Under the pieces are notes generated by a model. That model did not search any database, had not been told where the DNA came from, and saw nothing but the letters and a program-made list of their open reading frames with translations. Both the position numbers and the translations under genes were made by a program. Positions 2,579 through 52,965 of a stretch of 64,000 nucleotides of DNA are shown piece after piece (position 1 is the first letter of the stretch; every line of letters begins with the position of its first letter). The stretch lies in IMG/VR virus record IMGVR_UViG_3300025769_000069, one strand, 5' to 3'. Source of the DNA: a virus.

Positions 2579-2734
2579 ATGTTACCAGATGAAATGGAAG
2601 CTGAGAAGAATAGAAAGATTATCATATCTCAGGCAGAAACTATTGAAATTTTAAAACAGAATGTTCTAGATTTACAAGAGCAATTGAACAATGCATATAT
2701 TCGTATTAGAAAATTAACGGAGAATAAATTATGA
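2579..2734 (+). CDS. Small coiled-coil hypothetical protein (MLPDEMEAEKNRK...)
   Basis: AAGG RBS; ATGA overlap with the next gene; below the ORF-track cutoff. Confidence 0.7.
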   Translation: MLPDEMEAEKNRKIIISQAETIEILKQNVLDLQEQLNNAYIRIRKLTENKL

Positions 2735-3129
2735 AAGCAGGTAAAGTGTGGGGAACAACTGAATTAATTGAAGCAAATTGCGCTTTAGAATTTCATCGTA
2801 TTGAAATGGAAGCAGGTGGGGTATGCTCTAAGCATATGCATCGTTATAAATGGAATGGATTCTATGTAGAGTCTGGACGTATGCTTATTCGTACATGGCA
2901 AAAAGACTATAATCTGGTAGATGTAACCGAACTTCAAATAGGTGAATATCATAAAGTAAAACCAGGTTTGTACCATCAATTTGAATGTATCGAATCAGGT
3001 GTTGCATATGAACTATATTGGGCTGAGTTTAATCATAATGATATTGTAAGAGAGACTGTAGGACATATGGGTAATATAAAACCTGAACCCAACATCCCAA
3101 TAGCACCATATGATATTGGACATCAATAA
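2731..3129 (+). CDS. Cupin-fold protein (sugar isomerase-like)
   Basis: KVWG, CSKHMH...K.NGFYV, PGLYHQF. Confidence 0.75.
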   Translation: MKAGKVWGTTELIEANCALEFHRIEMEAGGVCSKHMHRYKWNGFYVESGRMLIRTWQKDYNLVDVTELQIGEYHKVKPGLYHQFECIESGVAYELYWAEFNHNDIVRETVGHMGNIKPEPNIPIAPYDIGHQ

Positions 3130-3131
3130 CC

Positions 3132-3836
3132 ATGCATTATATTTTCGATGTAGATGGCACATTAACTCCATCTAGACAATTAATGAATAAACATTTTGAA
3201 AAGTGGTTTGAAAACTTTTCAGCACACCATAATGTGTATCTTGTAACTGGATCTGACCGTGATAAAACTTTGGCTCAAGTGGGAGATGTTATTTACAATC
3301 TAGCTAAAACAGTATATAATTGTTCTGGTAATGATGTTTGGAAACAAGATAAAAATATTAGATCAAATTACTTTCAATTGCCAGATAATGTAAAAAAAGA
3401 TCTAACAATAGAAGCGAATGATTCCAGATTTCATGCAAAGAATGGTGACCATTTTGATGAACGTCCGGGGTTAGTCAACTTTAGCGTTGTAGGAAGAAAC
3501 TGTAGTCTTGAAAATAGATTTCTATATGTGCAATGGGATGAGCATAAAAATGAAAGAGAAATCATAGCTGAAAAAATGAGAGAGAAATATCCCGATCTTA
3601 ATTTTCAAGTGGCAGGAGAAACTGGAATTGATATTACTCTAAAGGGTTTAGACAAATCTCAAATTTTAAAAGATTTTATCACTCACGATGGGGCTATATA
3701 CTTCTTTGGAGATAAGATGGAATATGGCGGAAATGATTATGAACTCGGCTTGGCAGTCGCTAGATCTGGAAACCATGTCCATCAGGTTAAAGATTGGAGA
3801 CATACATGGAAAATTCTAAAAGAATTATCGGCTTAA
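3132..3836 (+). CDS. HAD-family phosphomannomutase (eukaryotic PMM-like)
   Basis: FDVDGTLT, ERPGLVNFSVVGR, FFGDKMEYGGNDY. Confidence 0.85.
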   Translation: MHYIFDVDGTLTPSRQLMNKHFEKWFENFSAHHNVYLVTGSDRDKTLAQVGDVIYNLAKTVYNCSGNDVWKQDKNIRSNYFQLPDNVKKDLTIEANDSRFHAKNGDHFDERPGLVNFSVVGRNCSLENRFLYVQWDEHKNEREIIAEKMREKYPDLNFQVAGETGIDITLKGLDKSQILKDFITHDGAIYFFGDKMEYGGNDYELGLAVARSGNHVHQVKDWRHTWKILKELSA

Positions 3837-4240
3837 CTGCTTCCACATTTGATTTGTTACACGCTGGCCATTGCGCAATGCTTCGTGAAGCAAAAGATCA
3901 TTGTGATTATTTGATTTGTGCTTTACAGGTAGATCCATCTATAGATAGAGCAGAAAAAAATGCACCCGTTCAAACATTGGTTGAGCGTTGGCTGCAATTG
4001 CAAAGTGTAAAATATGTTGATGAAATTATTCCATATCAAACTGAAGAAGATTTAAAAGATATTTTACAAATGTTTGATTTAGATTTACGTATTATTGGCC
4101 AAGAATATAAGTCAATGAAATTTACTGGACGTGACATTTGTTCACAGCGCAATATTGAAATTTATTACAACAAAAGAGATCATAGATTTTCTACATCTGA
4201 TCTACGTAAACGCGTTTTTGAAACGGAGAAAACAAAATGA
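3806..4240 (+). CDS. Glycerol-3-phosphate cytidylyltransferase-like (TagD family)
   Basis: FDLLHAGH, VKYVDEIIPY, RDHRFSTS. Confidence 0.85.
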   Translation: MENSKRIIGLTASTFDLLHAGHCAMLREAKDHCDYLICALQVDPSIDRAEKNAPVQTLVERWLQLQSVKYVDEIIPYQTEEDLKDILQMFDLDLRIIGQEYKSMKFTGRDICSQRNIEIYYNKRDHRFSTSDLRKRVFETEKTK

Positions 4241-5043
4241 ATATTTTAATCGTTGGTCATGGTTTTGTAGGACAAGCTGTGGATTATGGTTTCCAACATC
4301 CGGACATTGAAAAGACTATTATTGATCCAAAATATGGAACAACAATAGATGAAATTGACCAAACAAAATATAGTGCAGCTTTTGTTTGTGTACCTACACC
4401 AATGGGCGATGATGGTCGTGTAAATTATTCTATAGTAAGAGATGTTGTTAATAAATTAAAAGATAAAATGGTTGTTATTATCAAATCAACTATTACGCCA
4501 GATTTTTTTGATTTATATGCTGACGCAAATCACATTGTTTATAATCCAGAATTTTTAACTGAAAAATCTGCAAAAGAAGATTTTGTAAATCCTCCTTTCC
4601 ATATCTTAGGTGGTTCAGAGTTTTCTATTGATTATGTAGAAAAACTATATGATAATTATAGTCTGTGTAATCCGTGTCCAGTATTCAAAGTAAGCCATAA
4701 AGAAGCAAGTTTAATTAAATATGGTATCAATAATTTCTTATCTATGAAAGTTACATTTTTCAATCAACTGTACGACTTGGCTCAAAAAGAGGGTGTAAAC
4801 TTTAATAAAATTTCTCGTGTAATTGGGTCAGATCCTCGCATTGGTCAATCACACACTAAAGTTCCAGGGTTTGATGGTAAACAAGGTTATGGTGGAGCAT
4901 GTTTCCCAAAAGATACTTCAGCACTATTTAATTATGATAAGGGGTTTACAATCATTGGAGAATGTATTAGAATTAATAATGGATACAGATCTCAATATGA
5001 TTTAGATGAAAGAGAAAGAGAGCAGAATGTTAAGTTTTCTTAG
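4237..5043 (+). CDS. ugd: UDP-glucose/GDP-mannose 6-dehydrogenase
   Basis: GHGFVG, CVPTP, IKST, YNPEFL, GYGGACFPKD. Confidence 0.9.
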   Translation: MNILIVGHGFVGQAVDYGFQHPDIEKTIIDPKYGTTIDEIDQTKYSAAFVCVPTPMGDDGRVNYSIVRDVVNKLKDKMVVIIKSTITPDFFDLYADANHIVYNPEFLTEKSAKEDFVNPPFHILGGSEFSIDYVEKLYDNYSLCNPCPVFKVSHKEASLIKYGINNFLSMKVTFFNQLYDLAQKEGVNFNKISRVIGSDPRIGQSHTKVPGFDGKQGYGGACFPKDTSALFNYDKGFTIIGECIRINNGYRSQYDLDEREREQNVKFS

Positions 5044-5866
5044 TAAGAAACCTAAAACCGAAAATATTCGTTGGGGTTGGGATCATCAATGGGATCCTGC
5101 AGTGGATCTGATGATGCCACAAGGAGGTAGTGGTACGTCTCTACAACTAGACGACTTTTTGGATGTTAAACCAATTCCAAAATGGTTTAAAAACATGCCA
5201 ACTCTTGTGGATGAAGTGCGCCATCATCCTGGCAATAATTCAAATGAAAAACTTATGAATTGGTTTTATCAACCCAATAATTGGAACGCATTATTCGACA
5301 AGAGACTAGATCAACATACAACTTTCCGTACAATGAAAGGATGCCCTGCTGTATTAAATCAATTTACTCATAGTGTTTTAATTAAAACTCCTAGTGATTT
5401 GTTTATTGAAGTTCACGAAAAATATGGACCAAGATTTAAATCGCATTTAGATTGTATGTCTTTCACAGGTCATGCTCCAAACCAAACTGAAGGGAGCCCA
5501 CTGGATAAAAATTTTTGGATTATAAAAGCACATACACCACTAATTTTTTCTTCAGAAGTTGGCAATCGCGTTTTCTATCAAGATTGTTTATGGGAAAAAA
5601 TATATGATTTTAGAATTGTTCCAGGTCACATTGGAATCAAGACAAAAGAAATAGTTCCAATAACATTCTTTATGGCTTTCCCAAGAAATCTACCTACTGC
5701 TAAATATGTTTTAAAACGTGGCGAGCCATTAGCTTATATTACTTTTATGAATAAATTTAAAAAATTTATTTATGACGAATCGCTATTTAAAAAACATAGA
5801 AGAGATCAATATCAAAGGCATTTTTCTTATTTCGAAAAGCCCAAAATATCATATGAGGAAAACTAA
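5027..5866 (+). CDS. Hypothetical protein (TMKGCP-type conserved phage family)
   Basis: Long ORF in operon; TMKGCPA...KRGEPLA. Confidence 0.5.
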   Translation: MLSFLSKKPKTENIRWGWDHQWDPAVDLMMPQGGSGTSLQLDDFLDVKPIPKWFKNMPTLVDEVRHHPGNNSNEKLMNWFYQPNNWNALFDKRLDQHTTFRTMKGCPAVLNQFTHSVLIKTPSDLFIEVHEKYGPRFKSHLDCMSFTGHAPNQTEGSPLDKNFWIIKAHTPLIFSSEVGNRVFYQDCLWEKIYDFRIVPGHIGIKTKEIVPITFFMAFPRNLPTAKYVLKRGEPLAYITFMNKFKKFIYDESLFKKHRRDQYQRHFSYFEKPKISYEEN

Positions 5867-5868
5867 TA

Positions 5869-6915
5869 ATGTCAATTATGGACAAACTTAAAAAGAACAG
5901 TAAGATTAAAACTACCGAAGTTTTATCTGAATCTAAGTTCTTTACAGAAAAAGACATGGTTCCAACAGATGTGCCAATGATTAATGTAGCACTATCTGGT
6001 TCAGTTGATGGTGGACTTACACCAGGAATGACTGTGCTTGCTGGACCATCTAAACATTTTAAAACATCATTTGCATTATTGATGGCAGCTGCTTATTTGA
6101 AAAAATATCCAGATGCTGTAATGCTATTTTATGATTCCGAGTTTGGCTCACCACAATCTTACTTTACTCAATTTGGTATTGATACTGCAAGAGTGTTACA
6201 TACACCAATTGCAAACGTTGAAGAGTTAAAGTTTGATTTGGTGGGTCAATTAGAAGAAATTGAACGCGGTGATCGCGTAATTATTGTGATTGACTCTATT
6301 GGTAACCTTGCATCAAAGAAAGAATTGGAAGACGCCTTGAATGAAAAATCTGTGGCGGATATGTCACGGGCTAAAGCGCTCAAAGGCTTGTTCCGTATGA
6401 CTACTCCATATTTAACTATGAAAGATGTGCCATTATTGGCCGTCAATCATACGTATAAAGAAATTGGTCTATTTCCTAAAGATGTTGTTGGTGGAGGTAC
6501 TGGTATCTATTATTCAGCAGATAATATTTGGATTATTGGTCGCCAACAAGATAAAAAGGGAACTGAGATTCAAGGTTATCATTTTGTAATTAATGTAGAG
6601 AAAAGCAGATATGTTAAAGAAAAATCTAAGATTCCTATTACTGTTTCCTGGGACGGTGGTGTCCGTAATTACTCTGGGCTGCTCGATTGTGCTCTTGCTG
6701 GCGGTTATGTTACTAAGCCTTCCAATGGCTGGTATGCTACAGTTGATCAGGATACTGGTGAAATTGGAGCAAAAGTTCGGTACGATACAACTCTTGGTAA
6801 GTCTTTCTGGGACCCAATATTTGCTGAAACAGATTTTAAAACTTTCCTAAATAAACAATATAGTATAGGACACCAATCCTTGGTGGACATGGACGAAATT
6901 GTTGAGGAAGTATGA
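5869..6915 (+). CDS. uvsX: RecA-like recombinase UvsX
   Basis: AGPSKHFKT Walker A, YDSEFG, DSIGNLASKKE. Confidence 0.96.
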   Translation: MSIMDKLKKNSKIKTTEVLSESKFFTEKDMVPTDVPMINVALSGSVDGGLTPGMTVLAGPSKHFKTSFALLMAAAYLKKYPDAVMLFYDSEFGSPQSYFTQFGIDTARVLHTPIANVEELKFDLVGQLEEIERGDRVIIVIDSIGNLASKKELEDALNEKSVADMSRAKALKGLFRMTTPYLTMKDVPLLAVNHTYKEIGLFPKDVVGGGTGIYYSADNIWIIGRQQDKKGTEIQGYHFVINVEKSRYVKEKSKIPITVSWDGGVRNYSGLLDCALAGGYVTKPSNGWYATVDQDTGEIGAKVRYDTTLGKSFWDPIFAETDFKTFLNKQYSIGHQSLVDMDEIVEEV

Positions 6916-7115
6916 CAAAATATAAAGTAATATATCCCCCGGATGGGCATGCATATGGATTTCCCCGTTTGATGCCAGAACATATAAATCCAAAAACTCC
7001 AGCTTTTAATGAGTTTTTAAAAACCAATGGGTATCCATCTCACAAGATACCTATTGCCAATGATTTTACTGAAATGTGGAGTTTAGACAGCGATGAAAGA
7101 AAACATAGATTATGA
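6912..7115 (+). CDS. Hypothetical protein
   Basis: Coupled ORF, YPPDGHAYGFP. Confidence 0.6.
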   Translation: MTKYKVIYPPDGHAYGFPRLMPEHINPKTPAFNEFLKTNGYPSHKIPIANDFTEMWSLDSDERKHRL

Positions 7116-7359
7116 GTTGATCCCTATTGAGGATGCTGAACATTGGAATGTCAGAATCAAAACAGGTGATTACATTGAAACAGTTTTTCAGTTCGGAGCT
7201 TTAAAAGTAAATGATGACATAGACAGTATGACTTTTAATTTTGATATTGTTTCTACACCAGATGATACTTTAACTACTGAAGATATTGGTTTACAAAATC
7301 ACGTAGGTATGATATTATCATCTATATTAGAATCAGCTATAGGTCAAGCTCAAGGATGA
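7093..7359 (+). CDS. Small acidic protein in the gp40 position
   Basis: Between uvsX and gp41 as in T4; synteny only. Confidence 0.5.
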   Translation: MKENIDYELIPIEDAEHWNVRIKTGDYIETVFQFGALKVNDDIDSMTFNFDIVSTPDDTLTTEDIGLQNHVGMILSSILESAIGQAQG

Positions 7360-8726
7360 ATATTAATATTGAACAAACAGTCTTGCGCAATGTTCTTACA
7401 AATGAGAAATATATGCGCAAGGTTTTACCATTTGTAAAACCAGAATATTTTGAAGGTGTTTATCGACAACTATTTAAAGAAGTAGCTAAATATGTTGCAA
7501 AATATAATCGCTTGCCAACAATGGAATCATTTAAGATTGAAGTAGATCAATCAGATAAATTCAATGACGAACAATACCAGCATGCCGTAGAAATTATTCC
7601 AAATGTATTTACTCATGAAAAAGTAGATGACAAGTGGCTTATAGATACTACTGAGAAATGGTGCCAAGATCGTGCTGTTTATAATGCAATCATGGAATCC
7701 ATTAGTATTATTGATGGTAAACATCAGAGCTTAACTAAGAATGCTTTACCAGATATTCTTACCAAAGCTTTGGCGGTATCCTTTGACACTAACATTGGCC
7801 ATGATTATATTGAAAACGCTGATAGTCGATATGAGTTTTATCATGAAAAAGAAGAACGTCTTCCATTCGATTTAGAATATTTTAATAAAATTACAAAGGG
7901 TGGTCTTCCTAATAAAACACTGAATATTGCTCTTGCTGGCACTGGTGTTGGTAAATCTCTCTTTATGTGTCATGTAGCTGCAGCAGCATTAACTCAAGGT
8001 AAGAACGTACTTTATATTACATTAGAAATGAGTGAAGAGCGTATCGCTGAACGCATAGATGCCAATCTTTTAGATGTGCCAATAGATCAATTAGAATCAT
8101 TATCAAAAGAAATGCTGTTGAATAAAGTTTCTACTATTGCTGCTCGTACTAATGGGAAATTAATTATAAAAGAATATCCAACTGGCCAAGCACATGCTAA
8201 TCATTTCAGAGGCTTATTAAATGAGCTCAAGTTAAAAAAGAATTTTGTTCCAGAGATTATTTTTATTGACTATTTAAATATTTCTGCATCAGCAAGAATG
8301 AAAGGTATGGGAGGTGCTATTAACTCTTATTCTTATATTAAAGCGATTGCTGAAGAAATTCGTGGTTTGGCTGTGGAATTTAATGTGCCAATTATGTCAG
8401 CTACTCAAACAACTCGTTCTGGATATTCTAATTCAGATGTTGGTTTGGAAGATACTTCAGAATCATTTGGCTTACCGGCAACCGCTGATTTAATGTTTGC
8501 TTTAATTTCTAATGACGAGCTAGCTGCGAATGGCCAAATTATGGTAAAGCAATTAAAGAATAGATACAACGATCCAAATATAAATAAACGATTTGTTGTA
8601 GCTGTGGATAGATCTAAAATGAGACTATTCGATGTAGACAATCCAGATGCTGGATTAGTTGATGATACTCCGGCTTTTGATAAGTCGGAAGTAAATAAAA
8701 GATTTGAAGATTTTAAATTGGAGTAA
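7356..8726 (+). CDS. gp41: Replicative DnaB-like helicase gp41
   Basis: AGTGVGKS, IKEYPTG, IDYLNI, SESFGLPATAD. Confidence 0.97.
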   Translation: MNINIEQTVLRNVLTNEKYMRKVLPFVKPEYFEGVYRQLFKEVAKYVAKYNRLPTMESFKIEVDQSDKFNDEQYQHAVEIIPNVFTHEKVDDKWLIDTTEKWCQDRAVYNAIMESISIIDGKHQSLTKNALPDILTKALAVSFDTNIGHDYIENADSRYEFYHEKEERLPFDLEYFNKITKGGLPNKTLNIALAGTGVGKSLFMCHVAAAALTQGKNVLYITLEMSEERIAERIDANLLDVPIDQLESLSKEMLLNKVSTIAARTNGKLIIKEYPTGQAHANHFRGLLNELKLKKNFVPEIIFIDYLNISASARMKGMGGAINSYSYIKAIAEEIRGLAVEFNVPIMSATQTTRSGYSNSDVGLEDTSESFGLPATADLMFALISNDELAANGQIMVKQLKNRYNDPNINKRFVVAVDRSKMRLFDVDNPDAGLVDDTPAFDKSEVNKRFEDFKLE

Positions 8727-8729
8727 ATT

Positions 8730-8846
8730 ATGGCTAAAGGTTTTACTAATGCAAAGAAGACGTCCATTGGTCGTCGTAATATCAAAACATCATCTATGAA
8801 CAAAGGTAAAAAACGTTCATTTAAAAAATATCGAGGTCAAGGTTAA
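8730..8846 (+). CDS. Small basic protein ending KKYRGQG
   Basis: GGAG RBS; KYRGQG C-terminus seen in marine T4-like phages. Confidence 0.7.
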   Translation: MAKGFTNAKKTSIGRRNIKTSSMNKGKKRSFKKYRGQG

Positions 8847-9526
8847 TGCATGCAAAGCTCATTTCCTATAGCCAACCCGGCGGTCGTATCCACGCAGGCG
8901 AACCAGCTTACAGGGGATTGGATAACATCCAAGACCTCATTGCCTATTGCGCCCGTGTCTCCAATCCATCCAACCAAGCTAACACCAAAACAACGGCAAA
9001 GTTACTTGACTATCTCATCAAGCACAAACACTGGTCACCATTCGAAATGGCAAGCGCCTGCATCGAAGTCGAAACCACCAGAGACATTGCAAGACAACTC
9101 CTCCGCCACCGTTCCTTTAGTTTCCAAGAGTTTTCTCAGCGGTATGCTGACATCCGCGATCTTAATGATAATTTTGTAATTCGTGATGCACGTCTTCAAG
9201 ACACTAAGAATCGACAAAATAGTATTGATACTACAGACGTTGAATTGCAACAACAATGGGAAGGTTATCAAAAAGGAGTTATCAATGCAGCAAAACAAGC
9301 ATATGAATGGGCAATCGAAAATGGAATTGCCAAAGAACAAGCAAGAGTCGTTCTTCCAGAAGGTAACACGGTATCTCGTCTCTATGTTAATGGTACTATT
9401 CGCTCCTGGATACATTATGTCGAGCTACGTTCGGCAAATGGAACCCAAAAAGAGCATATGGAACTGGCGAGGGCGATAGCAGAAGCTATAAGTAAGATAT
9501 ATCCAAAGATAAATATATTTTTATAA
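8846..9526 (+). CDS. thyX: FAD-dependent thymidylate synthase
   Basis: HWSPFE and RHRSFSFQEFSQRY signature. Confidence 0.97.
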   Translation: MHAKLISYSQPGGRIHAGEPAYRGLDNIQDLIAYCARVSNPSNQANTKTTAKLLDYLIKHKHWSPFEMASACIEVETTRDIARQLLRHRSFSFQEFSQRYADIRDLNDNFVIRDARLQDTKNRQNSIDTTDVELQQQWEGYQKGVINAAKQAYEWAIENGIAKEQARVVLPEGNTVSRLYVNGTIRSWIHYVELRSANGTQKEHMELARAIAEAISKIYPKINIFL

Positions 9527-9537
9527 GGAGGAAAAAC

Positions 9538-9717
9538 ATGAAACAAAATTTTATAAATGATCCAGATAAAGCAGGTAAAGTTTCTTATAAGTTTGTAGGA
9601 GAAGCTGAGACGTTTGAGTATCACTATGCAGCAGATGATACAGAAGCTGAGCAAATTAGAGTGGAGAATGGATATGACTCTTTTTCAGTTGCAACTATTC
9701 TTAAAACTGTAGCTTAA
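9538..9717 (+). CDS. Hypothetical protein
   Basis: AGGAGG RBS and open frame MKQNFINDPD... Confidence 0.6.
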   Translation: MKQNFINDPDKAGKVSYKFVGEAETFEYHYAADDTEAEQIRVENGYDSFSVATILKTVA

Positions 9718-9720
9718 ACT

Positions 9721-9939
9721 ATGGGTAAAAAGCTTCAAACTTGGCATACTGATAATGATACTGGTTATTGTGAAATTCATTTCAGCCCCAAAGATGAAAT
9801 GTTTTATATTAAATACTTTGATGAAAATAATAAATGCTTTTTTTCAGAGGATTTTCCAAATAAAAGTTTACATTATGTTGAAGATGCAGCGGAAAACTGG
9901 TGTACAGGTATTAAAAAATTGGATATAATAAATGCATGA
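9721..9939 (+). CDS. Hypothetical protein
   Basis: ORF track; KSLHYVEDAAENW. Confidence 0.65.
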   Translation: MGKKLQTWHTDNDTGYCEIHFSPKDEMFYIKYFDENNKCFFSEDFPNKSLHYVEDAAENWCTGIKKLDIINA

Positions 9940-10087
9940 ATTAGAAGTTCAATCCGATTCAGATGGACAACTATTTCTAGAATTTCCAAGTGCTCTTCTC
10001 AATCAAGTTGGTTGGGATGCCGGTGACACTCTTCTATGGGAGGAATTACCTGATGGCAATTGGAAAATAGAAAAGGATGAAGAATGA
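9932..10087 (+). CDS. AbrB/MazE-like small DNA-binding protein
   Basis: LEFPSALLNQVGWDAGDTLLW swapped-hairpin pattern. Confidence 0.65.
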   Translation: MHELEVQSDSDGQLFLEFPSALLNQVGWDAGDTLLWEELPDGNWKIEKDEE

Positions 10088-10132
10088 ATTATGGGTTGGT
10101 GGAAACAAAAAGATTTAATGAGGAAAAAATAT

Positions 10133-10585
10133 ATGTCTGAGAATTGGGTTGCAGATATCAACAAAATGCACGACAAGTTTGGTGTGCATAAATGGTTTGA
10201 AGAAAACAAAGATAACAAAGATCTGATGCGTAAGTATCTGATGTTTCGTTTGTTGATGTGTCAGGAGGAGTTAAGTGAAACACTCGCTGCTTATAATAAT
10301 GGAGATGCTGAAGAAGTTGTTGATGGTCTCATTGATCTTTGCGTTTTTGCTATTGGCACTCTCGACGTATTTGGTGTTGATGCTTGGGACGCTTGGAATC
10401 GTGTCCATAGTGCTAATATGGCAAAAGAGCCAGGAGTTAAGCCGGGACGTCCTAATCCGTTTGGGCTACCGGATCTACTGAAGCCGGGTGGTTGGATTGG
10501 TCCAAACCACGAAGGTAATCACGGTAATCTTAATGCAGCTATTGACGATCGTCCAGAACCAAATATTGATCGTAATGCTTGGTAA
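10133..10585 (+). CDS. MazG-like all-alpha NTP pyrophosphatase (candidate dCTPase/dUTPase)
   Basis: QEELSE...EEVVDGLID...VHSANMAK. Confidence 0.8.
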   Translation: MSENWVADINKMHDKFGVHKWFEENKDNKDLMRKYLMFRLLMCQEELSETLAAYNNGDAEEVVDGLIDLCVFAIGTLDVFGVDAWDAWNRVHSANMAKEPGVKPGRPNPFGLPDLLKPGGWIGPNHEGNHGNLNAAIDDRPEPNIDRNAW

Positions 10586-11349: not shown

Positions 11350-11703
11350 ATGATTATGCGTGAATCGCTAAAAGTATTACAAGAATGTGCTGAACTCCAG
11401 CAACAAAAATCGCGTGACTATCAAAATGATAAATCACGTATTGTTCAAGCTGATTACTATCCACGTGGTGTAGCTTCAATTATGGATATTATCCATGCTA
11501 AAACTCTTCGACTTTGGTCAGTACTTGAAGCTATGGAAAATGATCCTGAATATAAACCAAACTTTGAGTCTATGGAAGACTCATTCAAAGATCTAATCAA
11601 CTATTCTAGTTTTGGCGTAGCATTCTGTCGTGGTAAAATTCCAGGTCAACGTACTGATCGTGACTTTCTAAATCGTGAGATCCGTAATAATGAAACTGAA
11701 TAA
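11350..11703 (+). CDS. Nucleotide modification associated domain 1 (Nmad1/DUF1599-like)
   Basis: KSRDY...K.LRL...ESMEDSFKDLINY; adjacent to the hydroxymethylase. Confidence 0.75.
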   Translation: MIMRESLKVLQECAELQQQKSRDYQNDKSRIVQADYYPRGVASIMDIIHAKTLRLWSVLEAMENDPEYKPNFESMEDSFKDLINYSSFGVAFCRGKIPGQRTDRDFLNREIRNNETE

Positions 11704-12385
11704 TGTAAACGATATCCGCCAATTCTTTATTGATGAACTTAAAGATGAAGCTTACACCATTGATAAAACTGGTCAAAAGACTATTGAATTAATTGGTGCT
11801 CAGTTTGTTGCAGATGAACCATCAATATTTGGTGTACCTAACCAAGAATACATTGATGCTGAACTGGCTTGGTATGAAAGCCAATCAACTAACATTTATG
11901 ATATTAATGGTAAAATAAAAGCACCACCTGCTGCATGGAAATATACAGCTAATACTCATGGTGAAATCAATTCTAATTATGGCCATTTGATTTTTTCTGA
12001 TAAGTATTACAATCAGTACGGTATGGTTCTAGATGAGCTACAGACTCATCCAGATGGCCGTAGAGCCACTATAGTATACAATAGGCCGTCTATTTGGATA
12101 GAATTTTGTGAAAATGGCAAGAATGACTTTATTTGCACAAATGCAGTAACTTATTATATTCGAGATAATTTATTACATTCCGTAGTCCAAATGCGTTCCA
12201 ATGATGTCATCTATGGATACAAGAACGATTTTGCGTGGCAGCTTTATGTAATGAAAAAATTAGTAAGTGATTTTAATAGTATCGCTAGAATGACCGGCGA
12301 TCATGCTGAAATAGAACTTGGCCATATCATCTGGCAAGTTCAAAACTTACACGTATATGAAAGGCATTTTCACCTTGTCAAATAA
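11690..12385 (+). CDS. gp42: dCMP hydroxymethylase (T4 gp42-like)
   Basis: DFICT and MRSNDVIYGYKNDFAWQ, with the Asp specificity residue as in gp42; LHVYERHF. Confidence 0.88.
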   Translation: MKLNNVNDIRQFFIDELKDEAYTIDKTGQKTIELIGAQFVADEPSIFGVPNQEYIDAELAWYESQSTNIYDINGKIKAPPAAWKYTANTHGEINSNYGHLIFSDKYYNQYGMVLDELQTHPDGRRATIVYNRPSIWIEFCENGKNDFICTNAVTYYIRDNLLHSVVQMRSNDVIYGYKNDFAWQLYVMKKLVSDFNSIARMTGDHAEIELGHIIWQVQNLHVYERHFHLVK

Positions 12386-12836
12386 ATGGGATAAACGTTA
12401 TCTTAACCTTGCTAGAGAAATCAGCACGTGGTCTAAAGATCCATCATCTAAAATTGGAGCTGTAGCAATTGGCTCCAAAGGTCAAGTACTCGCTCAAGGA
12501 TATAATGGTTTGCCTCGAGGCATCTTTGATGGAGAGTCTAGGCTTAGAGATAAAGAAGTAAAATATCAGTATGTTGTTCATGCTGAAATGAATTTAATTT
12601 ATAATGCTACGTATAATGGCGTCTCATTAGATGGTTCGACTTTATACGTATGGGGATTGCCGATTTGTAGTGAGTGCGCAAAAGGCGTGATCCAAGTTGG
12701 GATTTCTAGAGTAGTTATGCCAGATCATGATTTTCCAAAAAAATGGAAAAGTTCTTGGGAGATATCCCGTGTTCTATTTAACGAAGCAGGAATAAAATAT
12801 GACTTTGTTGATATGTGGTCTAAGTCCATCGAATAA
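12357..12836 (+). CDS. cd: dCMP deaminase
   Basis: WSKDPS, GYNG, HAEMN, PICSEC; start uncertain. Confidence 0.9.
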   Translation: MKGIFTLSNKWDKRYLNLAREISTWSKDPSSKIGAVAIGSKGQVLAQGYNGLPRGIFDGESRLRDKEVKYQYVVHAEMNLIYNATYNGVSLDGSTLYVWGLPICSECAKGVIQVGISRVVMPDHDFPKKWKSSWEISRVLFNEAGIKYDFVDMWSKSIE

Positions 12837-13143
12837 GTTCACACCAAAATTAAATGAAGTTCCATCCTTTAAAAAACTAAACAAATGGATGGATTATTTT
12901 GGATATAAGTACTATTCATTCACCAACATAAAACCTGATGGAAAAAATGTGTACATTGATGCAATAATAGATTATAATCTTATTATAGCATTGGGCAATG
13001 AAGCTTCAACTATCTTGAAAAAATTTGGTATTGAACATTTTTCTTTACCACATCCATCGCCCTTAAATAGAAAACTAAATGATAATGATTATGAAATGCA
13101 ATGTTTAAAAGAGTGTAAAGAATGGCTAAGAAAAAAATTTTAG
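12799..13143 (+). CDS. Minimal uracil-DNA glycosylase-superfamily protein
   Basis: GLSPS...IIALGNEA...LPHPSPLN. Confidence 0.7.
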   Translation: MTLLICGLSPSNKFTPKLNEVPSFKKLNKWMDYFGYKYYSFTNIKPDGKNVYIDAIIDYNLIIALGNEASTILKKFGIEHFSLPHPSPLNRKLNDNDYEMQCLKECKEWLRKKF

Positions 13144-14231
13144 TAACTGGATTTAATCACGAGCAAACAAGATACGACGGTTATTTAAGAAAACGAGTTG
13201 GTGTTATTCTTTGTCACTATGGACTTGTTCGTTGTCTTGAAGATATGGACTTTGAACTTACTCAAACATACACTGAGCCAGGAACAGATATTTCTGAATA
13301 CGATCATGTGATTGTTTTTCTACATAATCCACAAGGATTTTGTCAACGCTTATTTGATGGTCTTTGGGCCCTATCTCAAAGACCAGATGCTATTGTTGCC
13401 TTTGATGACTGGCAAGTAAAAGACATATATAATGGTATCATCCAGTATGGTAAAACTTTACGTGAACGTCCTGAGTCAGCATATCGTGGTCATATTTTAG
13501 ATCAGTATCATACAATTAAAGATGAGGCAAAAGTAAAATCATTCAATCAAGCATATCTCGATGCAATTGATATGTTAGAGGAAAAAAAGAATAAAGTTTT
13601 ACTTTGTACGTTTAGTGGCGGTGATGTAGAAAAATTTGGATTAGACTGGAATAAAGATTTACTATATACTTTTAATCCTAATCCATATCACTTAAGCAGA
13701 TCATATAAAAACAATTATGGTATTGAAGAAAGCAATGATTTAACTTCTTTCTTTGATGATTCTCCTGTTGGTCCAAATAAAGAAACAAAAGAAAAAGTTT
13801 GGATATTTAGTTCTCTAGTTCAAACAAAAACTCGTAAGTGGTTAACAAAACTAGATACGCAGTGGGATGTTAGAATTTATGGTGCGCAGCGGGGTGCTTA
13901 TAAGTCTGAACGTTTAACCGAAGATAAGATGGTTCAGGAATATGAAAGTGTATGGGGTAATTTGATGCCAGCATATGATAACATTGGTTCTGGTTGGTGG
14001 AGAACTCGAGTGTTGCAGTGTGCTGAAGCATTCTGTATTACATATTGCGATTATAATGAGGGAATCATCTATGGTGAAGAATATTGTAATTTTACTCCAG
14101 CAGATCTAGAACAAATGGATAAAGAACAACTGTGGAATAAAGCGATTGCTCAGTACGAATGCTTACTAGATAATCACCCACTAAATAAAGATGTAACAAA
14201 GAAAGAATTATTGGAGGTCCTTCATGGCTAA
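13122..14231 (+). CDS. Putative DNA (hmC) glycosyltransferase, GT-B type
   Basis: AFDDWQ, GSGWWRTR; position between gp42 and NDP-sugar epimerases. Confidence 0.6.
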   Translation: MAKKKILVTGFNHEQTRYDGYLRKRVGVILCHYGLVRCLEDMDFELTQTYTEPGTDISEYDHVIVFLHNPQGFCQRLFDGLWALSQRPDAIVAFDDWQVKDIYNGIIQYGKTLRERPESAYRGHILDQYHTIKDEAKVKSFNQAYLDAIDMLEEKKNKVLLCTFSGGDVEKFGLDWNKDLLYTFNPNPYHLSRSYKNNYGIEESNDLTSFFDDSPVGPNKETKEKVWIFSSLVQTKTRKWLTKLDTQWDVRIYGAQRGAYKSERLTEDKMVQEYESVWGNLMPAYDNIGSGWWRTRVLQCAEAFCITYCDYNEGIIYGEEYCNFTPADLEQMDKEQLWNKAIAQYECLLDNHPLNKDVTKKELLEVLHG

Positions 14232-15180
14232 GGTGTTAATTACTGGTGGAGCTGGTTTTATTGGTTTTCATTTGGCGCAGTCAATGCAAGATGATGGATG
14301 GGATGTAGCCTGTCTAGATGATTTTAATGGATTTTATTATGATCCGAATATGAAAGCTGATCGTTCAGAAATCCTAGCAGAACGTGGAATTAAAACATGG
14401 GCAGTTGATATTAAAGAAAAATCAAAGCTTGTCAACGCGTTGGATGCTGAGAAACCGGATGTTGTAATGCATCTTGCTGCTCACGCCGGCGTGCGTCACT
14501 CTCTGGACTATTCTAGACAGTATATTGACAACAATATCTATGGTACGCAAAACTTAATTGAAGCATGTGAAATTGTTGGAGTTGATAATGTAGTATATGC
14601 TTCGACTTCATGTGTTATGGCTGGCAATCAACTACCTTGGAAAGAAGATGATCCAACAAGACATCAACTCAATCCATATGGCTATACCAAAATGACAAAT
14701 GAATGTCAGATGATGGTATCAAAAATCAACAATACAATTGGTCTTCGTTTCTTTACAGTCTATGGACCTTGGGGTCGACCAGACATGGCATTGTTTAAAT
14801 TCACAAAAGGTATCCTTGATGGATCAAAAATTGATGTCTTTAATTATGGTGATATGAAACGAGACTTTACGTATGTAGATGATATTGTTGCTGGGATTAA
14901 AGTTCTGATTCAACGCACTATGGATAGTGACGGTTTAAAGGAAATCTATAATATTGGAAGAGGCGAACAAGTTCAGCTTATGGATTTCATTACTGAAATT
15001 GAAAAGAATTTTGGTCGCAAGGCTGAGAAAAATTTGTTACCAAAACATCCAGCTGATACTCAAGAAACATGGTCAGACACAACTAAACTCCGGTCTTTAG
15101 GTTGGAAACCTACTACTTCAATCTCTGAAGGCATTGAAAAATTTGCTGAATGGTATAAGTCATATTATGGAGTAAATTGA
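14224..15180 (+). CDS. NAD-dependent epimerase, UDP-glucuronate 4-epimerase type
   Basis: TGGAGFIG, HLAAHAGVRHS, YGYTK, RFFTVYGPWGRPDMA. Confidence 0.9.
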   Translation: MAKVLITGGAGFIGFHLAQSMQDDGWDVACLDDFNGFYYDPNMKADRSEILAERGIKTWAVDIKEKSKLVNALDAEKPDVVMHLAAHAGVRHSLDYSRQYIDNNIYGTQNLIEACEIVGVDNVVYASTSCVMAGNQLPWKEDDPTRHQLNPYGYTKMTNECQMMVSKINNTIGLRFFTVYGPWGRPDMALFKFTKGILDGSKIDVFNYGDMKRDFTYVDDIVAGIKVLIQRTMDSDGLKEIYNIGRGEQVQLMDFITEIEKNFGRKAEKNLLPKHPADTQETWSDTTKLRSLGWKPTTSISEGIEKFAEWYKSYYGVN

Positions 15181-15211
15181 ATAAATAGATAAAAATATTT
15201 AGAGGTACCTC

Positions 15212-16180
15212 ATGGCAAAAATTCTAATTACGGGCGGCGTAGGTTTTATTGGTTATCATTTAGCTCTGGCATTAAATAGTGATGGCCATCAAATTTGGCT
15301 TTTGGATAATTTTAATTTATGGGATTCTGTCAAAGGAATAAAAAGAGATAGAAAAAATTTGTTAACAGAGGTCGATGGAATTGACTTTATGCGTATGGAC
15401 ATTAGAAGTCAAGATGAAATTTGGCCGTGGTTCGAAGCACATCAATTTGATACCGCTGTTCACTTAGCTGGCCATGGGATGATAAGAACATCTGCAGAAG
15501 CTGGGAATAAACTTCCGTACGTTATGACTGGAATAGCAGGAGTAACTGAATTAATTGAAATGTTTGAAAGATTTGGTGTTAACAATGTTTTCTATGCATC
15601 TACTGGTGAAGTTGGTCAGGGTAACGCTTTACCTTGGTCAGAATCCGTTCCAATTCAACCAGCATTGAATCATTATACTTTAAGTAAAATTGCAAATGAA
15701 ATGCAGTTTAATATGTCAGATATTCAAAAAACTGTTGGATTGAGACTATTTAATACATATGGTCCATATGGTAGAATTGATATGGCCCCAACTAAATTTG
15801 CAACATGTTTACAAGACAATCTTCCTATTCAAGTGCACAACGAAGGAAATATGTCTAGAGATTGGATATATATTGATGATGCTATAAATGGTATTAAAAC
15901 TATTATGAATCATACTTGGAATACTGATGGTCAAGTACGAGAAATATATAATATTGGTTCTGGAACAAAGACAAGTCTAAATGATTTTATAACTAAATTA
16001 GAAACGGCTTATGGAGTAACAGGCACTAAAGAATTAGTGGATATGGCTTCAGGTGAAGTTCAAGATACACAAGCAGACATTACAAAATTACAAGCGCTTG
16101 GCTGGTCTCCTACTACATCATTAGATGATGGACTAACAAGTTTTGTAACGTGGTTTAAAACTTACTATGGAGTTAGTTAA
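15212..16180 (+). CDS. Second, divergent NAD-dependent epimerase paralogue
   Basis: TGGVGFIG, YTLSK, RLFNTYGPYGRIDMA. Confidence 0.85.
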   Translation: MAKILITGGVGFIGYHLALALNSDGHQIWLLDNFNLWDSVKGIKRDRKNLLTEVDGIDFMRMDIRSQDEIWPWFEAHQFDTAVHLAGHGMIRTSAEAGNKLPYVMTGIAGVTELIEMFERFGVNNVFYASTGEVGQGNALPWSESVPIQPALNHYTLSKIANEMQFNMSDIQKTVGLRLFNTYGPYGRIDMAPTKFATCLQDNLPIQVHNEGNMSRDWIYIDDAINGIKTIMNHTWNTDGQVREIYNIGSGTKTSLNDFITKLETAYGVTGTKELVDMASGEVQDTQADITKLQALGWSPTTSLDDGLTSFVTWFKTYYGVS

Positions 16181-16182
16181 AT

Positions 16183-16557
16183 ATGATAGTTGACGTTGAA
16201 TTGAATTTTTTACATAAATTTTTTGATGAAGTAGAAGAATATGCGCAGATAGATCGCGACATGCTGCATTGCAAAATGTGGGACGGCGCGCCCTGGCCGT
16301 GTCAGCCTGGAGATCAAAGACTTTATCTTTTTAATCACAGAGGACATAAGTCTTTAGCACTTCAAAGTGATATTGAAATAATAGGTAAATGGTTAGAAGA
16401 AATAAATCCAAACACACTAACTTTTTTATCTTTTCCTTGGCACGAGGATAAGGAAGGGGTTGAACCTAATACATGGCCATGTATTCTTCATGTACATTAT
16501 GATAGATGCCATGAGGGTGTTGTTCCAAACCCGCACTGGAATGAACCCAACTACTAG
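16183..16557 (+). CDS. Hypothetical protein
   Basis: ORF track, in operon. Confidence 0.55.
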   Translation: MIVDVELNFLHKFFDEVEEYAQIDRDMLHCKMWDGAPWPCQPGDQRLYLFNHRGHKSLALQSDIEIIGKWLEEINPNTLTFLSFPWHEDKEGVEPNTWPCILHVHYDRCHEGVVPNPHWNEPNY

Positions 16558-16565
16558 TTGACAGC

Positions 16566-17753
16566 ATGATTTATTCTAGTATTGTTCCGTTAATTGGCGG
16601 TGAAACAATTGCAATGGAAAAAGTCTTTGGAAAAAGACCTGAGTACATTCTTTCATATTCAGACTTTACAGCTAATGATAGCCAGCTTCTTCACTATTAC
16701 AATCATTCTGTTCCTTATCTTCTTCTCGATAAAGGTGGCCTTGCTCCTAGTCAGGTTGATGTGGTCAATACTGTCTGTCCTTGTGCAGGTCTTAGTTCCC
16801 TTAGCCCTTCTAGCAGTGGTGATAGTACTACTAATGATTGGATGGTCAAGTCTGCAGAGTATGTGCTCGAATCAGTCCAACCAACTGTGTTCTGGGGTGA
16901 AAACGCTCCACGTCTCGCTAGTAAAATGGGAGCACCAGTTGTCGCAAAGTTACGAAAACTTGCAAAGAAATATGGATACACATTCTCCATCTACAAAACA
17001 AAATCAATCCTCCACGGACTAAGTCAAATAAGAGATCGTACTTTCTATTTCTTTTGGAAAGGCAATCATGTTCCAATTTTTAAATACTACAATAGACCAT
17101 ATACAACTATTGAAGATCAAATCAGATCATCTGCAACAAATGAACTTGATCCAATGTTTGAACAAGTAAATAATAAAGGGAAACCTTCTGAAGATCCAAT
17201 GTATAGATTTGTTCTAGAAGAAATTGAAGGTGGTATGTCTCATTTTGATTATGTAAAGAAAACAAAGAAAACTCATAATCCGTATGATGCTATTGAAAGA
17301 GCTCAGATTAAATATTCTACTGTTGCAGAATGGATGAAATCTGAAGGATATGATCGTGTTGGAGAACGAATGATGCGCATTAATGAAAAGCTTGAATCAG
17401 GCGGAAACATTATGCGTAAAGGTGTTGAGATTGGAAAAGATTACATTGGCGCATTTGTTGGACATAATCCAACTAGCTTAGTACATCCTGATGAAGACAG
17501 ATTTATTAATACTCGCGAAGCTTTAGACATAATGAAAATGCCAAAAGACTTTATGTTACAAGGTGGGATTAAGAATTTAAATATGATTTGCCAGAATGTT
17601 CCCGTTACGACAGCAATGGATATGGCAGAGAATGTAAAAGATTTTCTTGGAGGATCTATTCAAACAATTGAAGCTGATTATATTCTTCAAGATAATAAAA
17701 CACAAACTTACAACGTCGAAAGAGTTATGAATACTCTAGAAGCTTTTATCTAA
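16566..17753 (+). CDS. C5-cytosine DNA methyltransferase homologue with atypical motif I
   Basis: CPCAGLS (IV), GENAP (VI), QIRDR (VIII), CQNVP (X); motif I reads IVPLIGG. Confidence 0.75.
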   Translation: MIYSSIVPLIGGETIAMEKVFGKRPEYILSYSDFTANDSQLLHYYNHSVPYLLLDKGGLAPSQVDVVNTVCPCAGLSSLSPSSSGDSTTNDWMVKSAEYVLESVQPTVFWGENAPRLASKMGAPVVAKLRKLAKKYGYTFSIYKTKSILHGLSQIRDRTFYFFWKGNHVPIFKYYNRPYTTIEDQIRSSATNELDPMFEQVNNKGKPSEDPMYRFVLEEIEGGMSHFDYVKKTKKTHNPYDAIERAQIKYSTVAEWMKSEGYDRVGERMMRINEKLESGGNIMRKGVEIGKDYIGAFVGHNPTSLVHPDEDRFINTREALDIMKMPKDFMLQGGIKNLNMICQNVPVTTAMDMAENVKDFLGGSIQTIEADYILQDNKTQTYNVERVMNTLEAFI

Positions 17754-46187: not shown

Positions 46188-46432
46188 TGACAATATTTGA
46201 ATGCTTGAATTTGAGAACAGAATTTGAAAATATTATTCAATATAGAAAATCTTATAATTTGCCTACACTTGATAGTGATATACATAGTCTTGTATATTTC
46301 ATGGAAACAGGTTATAAAAAGAACCGACTTAGGAAAGATGCAAATAGAGCTTTAAAAATTGCTGAAATGATTATAGAAAGTTATGAAAATGAAAACCCTA
46401 ATCTATCAAGTCTATACGGGAAAACGCTCTAA
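46187..46432 (+). CDS. Hypothetical protein
   Basis: Coupled ORF. Confidence 0.6.
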   Translation: MTIFECLNLRTEFENIIQYRKSYNLPTLDSDIHSLVYFMETGYKKNRLRKDANRALKIAEMIIESYENENPNLSSLYGKTL

Positions 46433-47180
46433 ACTGTATGACCATTGTACTCAATCAGTAAAAGATTATGCTAACAGAATAGGGGCTGACTATGAATGTC
46501 AGCGTACTCCTATTTTGATGATACGTCCAGATCCATTTACAACAAATAGGAGTAAAGAATCATATGAGAAATATGGTGGGTTTCTTCCAATTTATGAAAA
46601 GGAAAATGCCTTTACGTACCTTAAATCCTATGATCAGGTGGCCATTATTGATGCTGATGTTTTTGTTAGGCCTGAGTGTAATGATTCTATATTCACTGAT
46701 GCTGGCACTGATTGCCACTTCGCTGGCGTCTTAGAACGTGATATGCCTATTACGAATGAATATACTCAAAAATTAGCTAACTATACTCGTATGCAATATA
46801 TGCAATCTCCACAAATAAAAAATCTATTTAATTGGAAGCATAAAGCTGGTGCTGACTTCTATAACATGGGTATTATGGTTTTAAACAAATCAATTGCTAA
46901 ATACCTGAGAGGTGAAACGCCTAAACAATTTCTATCACGTCCAGAATTTAAACCATTTATTGATGGTATGGGCGCATGGAAATGGTCTACTGACCAAACA
47001 CTATTAAATGTTTGGGTTAAAGAAGAAAAGATGAAAGTGAATAATCTCCATTGGAAATGGAATGGTTTGTTTACTGCAAATACAAAGATTAAGCATTGCA
47101 ATTTTGTTCATTTCTTTTTAAAAGACAAGCTGCCTAATCGTGGTGAGAACGTAGAAGAACTAATGAAAGCAATTGGATGA
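46389..47180 (+). CDS. GT-A glycosyltransferase (GT8/GT34-like)
   Basis: IDAD, YNMG, DQTLLN, FVHF. Confidence 0.8.
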   Translation: MKTLIYQVYTGKRSKLYDHCTQSVKDYANRIGADYECQRTPILMIRPDPFTTNRSKESYEKYGGFLPIYEKENAFTYLKSYDQVAIIDADVFVRPECNDSIFTDAGTDCHFAGVLERDMPITNEYTQKLANYTRMQYMQSPQIKNLFNWKHKAGADFYNMGIMVLNKSIAKYLRGETPKQFLSRPEFKPFIDGMGAWKWSTDQTLLNVWVKEEKMKVNNLHWKWNGLFTANTKIKHCNFVHFFLKDKLPNRGENVEELMKAIG

Positions 47181-48482: not shown

Positions 48483-48485
48483 AAA

Positions 48486-52964: not shown

Positions 52965-52965
52965 T

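Follow-up and report, generated by a model that had tools for sequence, protein, structure and literature searches.

The window analysed here is the 64,000-nucleotide stretch of the virus record IMGVR_UViG_3300025769_000069, and its subject is a cassette of nucleotide- and sugar-modifying genes at 11350–17753. On balance, we consider it probable that the DNA of this phage carries a sugar derived from UDP-glucuronate, most likely galacturonate, on 5-hydroxymethylcytosine (hmC). A uronosylated hmC had been proposed in a preliminary description of this DNA. That proposal is supported by a synthase with hydroxymethylating-type residues, a transferase with a fold like that of T4 β-glucosyltransferase (BGT), and the linkage of UDP-glucose dehydrogenase (Ugd)-like and epimerase genes to a single clade of this transferase; it is weakened by the lost signature of one of the two presumed epimerases and by the truncation of the Ugd-like protein. 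The cassette consists of nine tightly packed open reading frames (ORFs) on the plus strand, neighbours of which overlap or stand no more than 31 nt apart:

11350..11703, + strand: Nmad1 / DUF1599 (Pfam E = 6e-4, below cut-off; PHROG ~1e-11)
11675..12385, + strand: dCMP hydroxymethylase, i.e., 5-hydroxymethyl (5hm)-dCMP synthase of T4 gp42 type (1B49, E = 2.7e-69)
12318..12836, + strand: dCMP deaminase (Pfam dCMP_cyt_deam_1, E = 1e-16; PHROG 174, E = 2e-38)
12799..13143, + strand: miniature protein of the uracil-DNA glycosylase (UDG) superfamily, 114 aa (predicted fold and Pfam UDG in family members)
13122..14231, + strand: GT-B glycosyltransferase, 369 aa, candidate hmC-DNA glycosyltransferase (AlphaFold2 model with T4 BGT as best match; PHROG 14998)
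14224..15180, + strand: short-chain dehydrogenase/reductase (SDR) 1, predicted UDP-glucuronate 4-epimerase (5u4q, E = 3.7e-80, and motifs)
15212..16180, + strand: SDR2, orphan diverged epimerase paralogue (44% identity to SDR1)
16183..16557, + strand: near-orphan ORF, 124 aa (few database matches)
16566..17753, + strand: C5-cytosine methyltransferase-like protein (Pfam DNA_methylase, E = 7e-13)

All of the genes that had been assigned to one operon in the preliminary description were found in this arrangement, and the block extends past 16180 to 17753, which adds the 124-aa ORF and the methyltransferase-like gene. The cassette sits inside the replication module of a T4-like phage, among genes for UvsX, ThyX, a polymerase of family B, and a helicase of gp41 type. 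No close relative emerged when the block was compared by megablast with 50,697 phage records.

The transferase, previously described as a GT-B-like gene for which structural comparison with T4 BGT and T4 α-glucosyltransferase (AGT) was suggested, matched no Pfam family at an E value of 0.01 or better (including PF09198) and no NCBIfam family. Its AlphaFold2 (AF2) model, built from a 29-sequence alignment, had a predicted local distance difference test (pLDDT) score of 92.4 and adopted a GT-B fold. T4 BGT was the top match of this model both in Foldseek (E = 3.5e-7) and in VIA-align, where the structure 1nzd was aligned over 301 residues with a Z score of 19.2 and a root-mean-square deviation (rmsd) of 3.5. 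In VIA-align, the best other family scored 17.1, T4 AGT 16.3, and the HY126 DNA glycosyltransferase 15.4. Two aspartates located after the fourth strand, D95 and D96, were near-invariant among the homologues; in T4 BGT, the catalytic base is of the Asp100 type. The substitutions Q24K and Q25R occurred in the transferases of the uronate clade described below; they were not counted as evidence because no residue-level structural alignment lies behind them. In the related loci L009 and L010, the gene order is synthase, deaminase, transferase, epimerase, (Ugd), methyltransferase-like gene, uvsX, and helicase; in T4, the order is 42, b-gt, uvsX, and 41, and the transferase of these relatives thus occupies the b-gt slot. 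A member of the transferase family was also found together with a dCMP-type hydroxymethyl synthase and UDP-galactopyranose mutase (GLF) at 6458–10075 of a 304-kb jumbo-phage contig (L006) without T4-like neighbours, indicating that the pairing of transferase and synthase is not only inherited T4-like synteny. A distant homologue of the transferase (~28% identity) was located in Aeromonas phage 25 (L002, 3899–7170) between two hypothetical proteins of ~350 aa, away from gene 42. Other cultured phages with distant homologues are the Aeromonas phages phiAS4 and Aes508, Stenotrophomonas phage IME13, and Erwinia phage FBB1.

To place the cassette in context, we compared 80 IMG/VR loci and eight other contigs encoding transferase homologues, which together contained 66 distinct transferase sequences. 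Among the 40 distinct loci with at least 3.5 kb of upstream DNA, the synthase was present upstream of the transferase in 35, the deaminase in 31, Nmad1 in 27, and the mini-UDG in 16. The variable element was the position directly downstream, which we refer to as the donor slot. This slot was occupied by GLF in 44 of the 66 distinct loci, 16 of which also contained a GalE-like SDR; by a Ugd-like gene together with an epimerase of SDR1 type in 11; and by a Ugd-like gene with another SDR in one. In one further locus, an SDR1-like epimerase followed the methyltransferase-like gene and no Ugd-like gene was found; the slot was empty in six loci, and the contig ended there in three. A methyltransferase-like gene followed the donor slot in 38 of the 48 distinct loci with at least 3.8 kb of downstream DNA.

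The 12 Ugd-associated transferases, including that of the window, grouped as one clade of a maximum-likelihood tree, with a Shimodaira–Hasegawa-like approximate likelihood-ratio test (SH-aLRT) support of 100 and a stem of 0.43 changes per site, and a single change of state suffices to explain the distribution of Ugd versus GLF on the tree. Within this uronate clade, a Ugd-like gene was found in all 12 loci, although at three different positions (after the epimerase, before the synthase, or, as in the window, 7.5–8 kb upstream). Orthologues of SDR1 with 57–66% identity followed the transferase in 11 of the 12 clade sequences, and in nearly all members the epimerase gene and the stop codon of the transferase shared a few bases. 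This pattern is suggestive of a donor slot matched to the transferase.

The base to be glycosylated is predicted from the synthase. The protein encoded at 11675–12385 shares ~52% identity with the T-even gp42 proteins and retains hydroxymethylating-type residues, as expected from its earlier description as a gp42-type dCMP hydroxymethylase. Its DFIC motif aligns with DFMC of T4, so that the catalytic Cys is kept and the Asp three residues earlier falls at the position of Escherichia coli L143. KND corresponds to RND of T4, and the Asp at the position of E. coli N177 is of the dCMP-substrate type. The enzyme also reads MRSND, like RSND in T4, so that D169 of E. coli ThyA is retained, whereas RB69 gp48 reads MRSQN and shares only 24–27% identity with the synthase in three alignments. 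This last position is diagnostic, because the gp42-like enzymes of RB69, DLP3, and other phages, which have Asn at E. coli D169, make 5-hydroxy-dCMP and not 5-hydroxymethyl-dCMP (PMC13326640, 2026). Judged by these residues, the active site is of the hydroxymethylating type: the retained D169, the Asp at N177, and the Asp at the L143 position together predict that the base is hmC and not 5-hydroxycytosine (5hoC). Among the 47 distinct synthases located beside transferase homologues, the motif was read in 46, and all 46 had the T4-type signature. The RB69-type 5hoC route was therefore rejected, since D169N was found neither in the window nor in any neighbouring synthase that was read.

Two further nucleotide enzymes are encoded upstream of the cassette:

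8846..9526, + strand: ThyX flavin-dependent thymidylate synthase (Pfam Thy1, E = 1.6e-43)
10091..10585, + strand: MazG-like all-alpha NTP pyrophosphohydrolase, candidate dCTPase/dUTPase (Pfam PRA-PH, E = 1.3e-9)

Because ThyX is present, a homologue with the ThyA fold is not required for dTMP synthesis and is free for hydroxymethylation. The MazG-like protein (ORF 10091/10133), which had been recognised before as a pyrophosphatase upstream of the operon, showed weak PDB matches to the MazG-like protein DR2231, and its gene lies upstream of the cassette in many loci. The earlier identification of the dCMP deaminase was likewise borne out by its Pfam domain. That of Nmad1, for which the Pfam match was weak when taken alone, was supported by relatives with 43–94% identity, which are encoded upstream of the synthase, and the Nmad1 family appeared in the precomputed Pfam hits of the relative L004. 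No deoxynucleoside monophosphate kinase was found within the window.

Of the two SDR proteins, both of which had been described as epimerases with the UDP-glucuronate 4-epimerase signature, the first carries this signature exactly (RFFTVYGPWGRPDMA), whereas the second reads RLFNTYGPYGRIDMA. The best PDB matches of SDR1 were 5u4q, the Bacillus cereus UDP-glucuronate 4-epimerase UGAepi (6zl6, E = 3e-49), and MoeE5 (E = 9e-35), all well above GalE-type enzymes. The deposition of 5u4q, a Klebsiella protein, names it a dTDP-glucose dehydratase; the motif of SDR1 is present in it, and we take it to be a Uge/Gla epimerase. When aligned to 6zl6 and 5u4q, SDR1 keeps GGAGFIG, STSC, YGYTK (YxxxK), and the signature given above. 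The marks by which UDP-glucuronate 4-epimerases are recognised are thus present: the NAD motif, the Thr/Tyr/Lys triad, a Ser/Thr network for the carboxylate, and Arg in the GRPDMA motif.

SDR2 had its best PDB matches to the same two proteins, 5u4q and the B. cereus UDP-glucuronate 4-epimerase, and keeps the NAD motif, YxxxK, and the Arg. However, it was the only one of the 120 closest homologues to read STGE (TGE) and LFNTYGPYGRIDM; its STGE and LFNTYGP correspond to [ST]S[SCA] and F[TS]VYGP in the other 119 homologues, and the Ser/Thr carboxylate network is lost. A search of 5.8 billion proteins for orthologues of SDR2 returned identical copies only, and the next matches, at 43% identity, were of the SDR1 type. 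The terminal branch of SDR2 was five times as long as the median (1.13 versus 0.21). In UGAepi, Thr/Ser and Arg185 hold the carboxylate of the substrate, and disrupting this hold gives a primitive UDP-xylose synthase (PMC12338863). To judge from its residues, SDR2 either has taken on a new role, possibly that of a decarboxylase, or is in decay, and it lies outside the conserved core of the cassette.

The remaining candidate donor enzymes form one contiguous run at 2731–5043:

2731..3129, + strand: cupin protein, possible sugar-phosphate isomerase (Pfam Cupin_2, E = 9e-5, below cut-off)
3132..3836, + strand: phosphomannomutase (PMM)-like HAD-IIB phosphohexomutase (Pfam PMM, E = 3e-23)
3794..4240, + strand: cytidylyltransferase-like nucleotidyltransferase, TagD / RfaE domain II type (Pfam CTP_transf_like, E = 1.6e-13)
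4237..5043, + strand: UDP-glucose 6-dehydrogenase-like protein, short, 268 aa (Pfam UDPG_MGDP_dh_N and central domain only)

The gene at 4237 had been called a UDP-glucose dehydrogenase, which is correct for the part that is present: the NAD domain (GHGFVG, an N-terminal GxGxxG), the central domain, NPEFLTE, and the catalytic Cys in GGACFPKD are kept. The C-terminal UDP-binding domain (PF03720) was not found, and the protein ends 35 residues past the catalytic Cys. Its best PDB match was the UDP-glucose dehydrogenase 4a7p (E = 4.8e-26), and GDP-mannose dehydrogenase 1mfz was matched at E = 1.7e-14. Homologues of similarly short length (270–276 aa) were found beside the transferase or epimerase in L009 (12044–12874), L010 (6133–6945), and L011 (2743–3567), indicating that this is a conserved architecture and not a pseudogene. 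To our knowledge, no enzyme of this two-domain mini-Ugd form has been characterised. A split gene completed by the following ORF (5006–5866) was rejected, since the relatives are equally short with different neighbours and this 286-aa ORF had no homologue in the related loci. The Atlas matches of the 286-aa ORF were all hypothetical clusters from viruses, in which DUF6065 offers a lead.

The earlier identification of PMM at 3132 held, and PMM-like homologues were found in L009, L017, L048, and L057. In L009, the transferase is preceded at a distance of 3.1 kb by a cupin homologue with 79% identity. The nucleotidyltransferase, which matched the NCBIfam models g3p_cytidyltrns and rfaE_dom_II below their cut-offs, likely makes a nucleoside diphosphate (NDP)-sugar to judge from its domain. 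In 15 loci, its homologues lie less than 2.5 kb from the synthase or directly after GLF; their presence beside GLF cassettes suggests that these phages make their own base NDP-hexose.

Taken together, these genes are consistent with the following pathway. The gp42-type enzyme, whose active-site type is indicated by sequence, would convert dCMP to 5-hydroxymethyl-dCMP, while the MazG-like pyrophosphatase and the dCMP deaminase would deplete dCTP and ThyX would make dTMP, so that the polymerase would incorporate hmC. UDP-glucose, supplied either by the host or by the phage's own PMM-like mutase and nucleotidyltransferase, would be oxidised to UDP-glucuronate by the short Ugd-like enzyme, and SDR1 would convert UDP-glucuronate to UDP-galacturonate. 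The BGT-like GT-B transferase may then flip hmC from duplex DNA and transfer the uronic acid to its hydroxyl. The predicted product is a 433-Da hexuronosyl-5-hydroxymethyldeoxycytidine nucleoside, which would be expected to block restriction and Cas nucleases. The scheme assigns no step to SDR2, the 124-aa ORF, the mini-UDG, or the methyltransferase-like protein.

Several observations weigh against a uronate on hmC. A comparison of the 29-sequence transferase profile with T4 BGT using hhalign yielded a probability of only 16% over 61 N-terminal columns. With sequence kinship to BGT undetectable, we did not assign the transferase to GT63 and call it BGT-like for its fold and its place in the genome; sharing the GT-B fold with BGT is no proof that it acts on DNA. 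Every Ugd enzyme of solved structure binds UDP through a domain that is missing from the Ugd-like protein, which is therefore a candidate enzyme only. SDR2, to judge from its altered motifs, may not be an epimerase and may convert the uronate to something else. Many other glycan genes of this phage could consume UDP-uronates. The linkage of Ugd and epimerase has one evolutionary origin, so that descent is inseparable from functional coupling. Finally, the source phage is uncultured and known here from its sequence alone.

One competitor of galacturonate concerns SDR2. If this protein decarboxylated UDP-glucuronate or UDP-galacturonate to UDP-xylose, UDP-arabinose, or a UDP-4-keto-pentose for the transferase, hmC would end up with a pentose or 4-keto-pentose as its sugar. 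The Ser/Thr network positions are occupied in SDR2 by G, E, and N, and decarboxylases and dehydratases of the SDR type typically have Glu where STGE has it (UXS, ArnA, and RmlB motifs). UGAepi itself becomes a primitive UDP-xylose synthase once its hold on the carboxylate is disrupted (PMC12338863), and a pentose on cytosine is known in the Shewanella phage Thanatos. However, SDR2 is missing from every relative, including L012/L013, whose transferase is 82% identical, and the donor of the transferase was therefore probably fixed before SDR2 arose. The very long branch of SDR2 fits relaxed constraint equally well, and we know of no enzyme that directly decarboxylates UDP-galacturonate. We thus regard a pentose as quite unlikely. 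A broader idea, that this lineage makes an undescribed DNA sugar, appears unlikely as well, although it deserves some weight: SDR2 would be a decarboxylating or re-purposed offshoot, hmC would carry a uronate-derived pentose, a keto-sugar, or a mixed glycan, and the donor would be made via a two-domain dehydrogenase without a UDP-binding domain. A donor outside the gluco/galacto UDP-sugars is conceivable too, with the cupin, PMM-like, and nucleotidyltransferase proteins making an ADP-, CDP-, or GDP-hexose (e.g., mannose) that the short dehydrogenase converts to an NDP-mannuronate-type acid. These genes and the Ugd-like gene are contiguous, the fold of the nucleotidyltransferase is that of a cytidylyl/adenylyl-transferase and not of a UDP-glucose pyrophosphorylase, the dehydrogenase is without the usual UDP-binding domain, and GDP-mannose dehydrogenase (1mfz) is among its matches. 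Nevertheless, UDP-glucose dehydrogenases score far better (4.8e-26 versus 1.7e-14), SDR1 is full length and nearest to the UDP-glucuronate/galacturonate 4-epimerases (E = 3.7e-80), and the same nucleotidyltransferase occurs beside GLF cassettes, which need UDP-galactose, making such a donor decidedly improbable.

The other two alternatives separate the transferase from the uronate genes or from DNA. In one, which we judge comparably doubtful to the pentose, the transferase puts a neutral sugar supplied by the host (glucose or galactose) on hmC; the Ugd-like protein and epimerase feed another glycan, such as that of a virion protein, a collagen-like fibre, or the host envelope, and their position reflects inherited gene order. 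The glycan island of the window, with its GT25-, GT9-, and FkbM-like genes, would offer such an outlet; the association of Ugd and epimerase has a single origin; and the Ugd-like gene of the window lies 8 kb from the transferase. On the other hand, the same slot in the sister clades holds other donor-makers (GLF with or without a GalE-like SDR) that abut the transferase, which fits a donor slot, and the long stem of the transferase clade coincides with the change of slot content. The overlap of the epimerase with the transferase stop codon in nearly all clade members also argues for coupling, as does the dependence of a glycosyltransferase activity on an adjacent epimerase in the study of Pyle et al. 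(2023). The other alternative, in which the acceptor of the GT-B protein is a lipid, a small molecule, or another protein and its position near the synthase is coincidental synteny of T4-like replication modules, draws on the GT-B enzymes with non-DNA acceptors that score only 2–3 Z units below BGT and on the lack of significant sequence homology between the transferase and BGT. It is hard to reconcile with the pairing outside T4-like genomes (L006, the 304-kb contig with the dCMP-type hydroxymethyl synthase), with the occurrence of the synthase in the upstream DNA retrieved for 35 of the 40 distinct loci, and with the presence of all three solved phage DNA glycosyltransferases (BGT, AGT, and the HY126 glycosyltransferase) among the structure matches, and we consider it very improbable. 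A uronate on hmC, most likely galacturonate, remains the reading that we favour.

The accessory genes of the cassette showed further features. The AF2 model of the mini-UDG had a pLDDT of 89. Foldseek alone gave no significant match (best E = 7e-3); the fold was settled by VIA re-alignment to the Thermotoga maritima family-4 UDG (Z = 9.6, 113 of 114 residues, rmsd 2.9) and by Pfam UDG matches in 14 of 19 family members, so that the UDG-like protein of the preliminary description proved to be a 114-aa core of the UDG superfamily. Its motif B (HPSPLN) is present, and its motif A (GLSPS) is without the catalytic Asp, Glu, or Asn. Motif A varied in parallel with the donor slot: GLF-type cassettes have GINPS, as in MUG/TDG, where the uronate clade has either GLSPS or GHSPS. 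The 124-aa ORF had four matches in 1.84 billion representatives (best non-self E = 1e-7), and an ORF with 31% identity occupies the same position in L012/L013. The methyltransferase-like protein keeps the C5-methyltransferase motifs IV, VI, VIII, and X as PCAG, ENA (for ENV), QIRDR, and QNVP, and an intact gene of this type closes the cassette even though hmC is expected to take the place of C. Its sole PDB match was SpCmoX (8YF3), in which GRMVP stands opposite the Asn of QNVP. The marker of CmoX is Arg at the HhaI N304 position, R350 in SpCmoX (PMC12783734); CmoX-type carboxymethylation was rejected for this gene, which has Asn where CmoX has Arg-350.

Other glycan genes were found outside the cassette. 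At 46383–56292, ~15 short co-directional genes, with GT25-, GT9-, FkbM-, and CmcI-like matches, make up a glycan island apart from the cassette and a potential competitor for nucleotide sugars; within it, a cytidylyltransferase-like domain is fused to a mannose-6-phosphate-isomerase cupin (52966–53742). In the close relative L009, a KdsA-like gene (DAHP_synth_1) and a KdsB-like gene (CTP_transf_3) lie just upstream of the hydroxymethyl-dCMP synthase (4979–6504), which hints at a 3-deoxy-D-manno-octulosonic acid (Kdo) pathway, and Kdo-5hmC was reported by Pyle et al. (2023; bioRxiv 10.1101/2023.12.21.572611).

If the favoured reading is true, an acidic, negatively charged sugar joins the natural hmC decorations of the pre-replicative T4-type route, and the widespread BGT-like transferases of aquatic phages use a swappable donor slot, mostly for galactofuranose and, in one clade, for uronate. 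From the content of the donor slot, the chemistry of phage DNA could then be predicted by a simple rule. Whether phage DNA is open to CRISPR nucleases, restriction enzymes, type IV systems, and sequencing chemistries depends on modifications of this kind. For enzymologists, the short Ugd and the altered epimerase paralogue are of interest in their own right.

Close relatives of the cassette are the GLF cassettes of aquatic phages in the sister clades, which share the transferase family (37–48% identity), synthase, deaminase, mini-UDG, Nmad1, and methyltransferase-like gene in the same order. Galactofuranose is the sugar predicted for them from the GLF in their slot, which in some is joined by a GalE-like SDR; for the window clade, whose slot holds a Ugd-like gene and an epimerase (of UGAepi type in 11 of 12), the prediction is galacturonate. 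Among characterised systems, T4 glucosylates hmC and RB69-type phages arabinosylate 5hoC. The T4 pathway (gp42, gp56, gp1, Cd, and α-/β-glucosyltransferase) resembles that of the window in its pre-replicative hmC, gp42-type synthase, dCMP deaminase, nucleotide pyrophosphatase, and BGT-fold transferase. It differs in that the transferase of the window has no detectable sequence kinship to GT63, its pyrophosphatase is MazG-like, and the mini-UDG, Nmad1, and C5-methyltransferase-like proteins are extra; moreover, the window phage encodes the donor-modifying Ugd-like and UGAepi-type proteins, and its predicted sugar is acidic, not glucose. The arabinosyl- and galactosyl-5hoC systems of RB69, DLP3, HY126, and RL38J1 (PMC13326640) likewise combine a thymidylate-synthase homologue with GT-B DNA glycosyltransferases and NDP-sugar genes, and their sugar modules are swappable. 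In contrast to the window synthase, which keeps the Asp, their synthases carry D169N and lead to 5hoC with an ether-linked sugar; their sugar genes follow an arabinose-5-phosphate isomerase, kinase, and phosphatase route, whereas those of the window are Ugd and UGAepi.

In the preliminary description, an acidic sugar on hmC was said not to be known as characterised. It does have a precedent, because Pyle et al. (2023; bioRxiv 10.1101/2023.12.21.572611) had already obtained a hexuronic acid (HexA)-5hmC of 433 atomic mass units in E. coli from two metavirome clusters (contigs 57 and 91). In one of these clusters, installation of HexA depended on the adjacent epimerase, and the glycosyltransferase, GT57, has a GT-A, JGT-like fold. 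These clusters resemble the window in combining a phage glycosyltransferase and a neighbouring sugar epimerase with hexuronic acid on 5hmC, which in the window is predicted. Their 5hmC arises post-replicatively via a C5-methyltransferase and a TET-like dioxygenase, and no phage Ugd was described, whereas the route in the window is pre-replicative and of gp42 type, its transferase is a BGT-like GT-B protein, and a short Ugd-like gene is included. Full-text literature searches revealed no report of a cassette with a gp42-type synthase, a BGT-like transferase, and Ugd/UGAepi. Thus, hexuronic acid on 5hmC is already known, but its predicted combination with a gp42-type synthase, a BGT-like transferase, and Ugd–UGAepi would be new.

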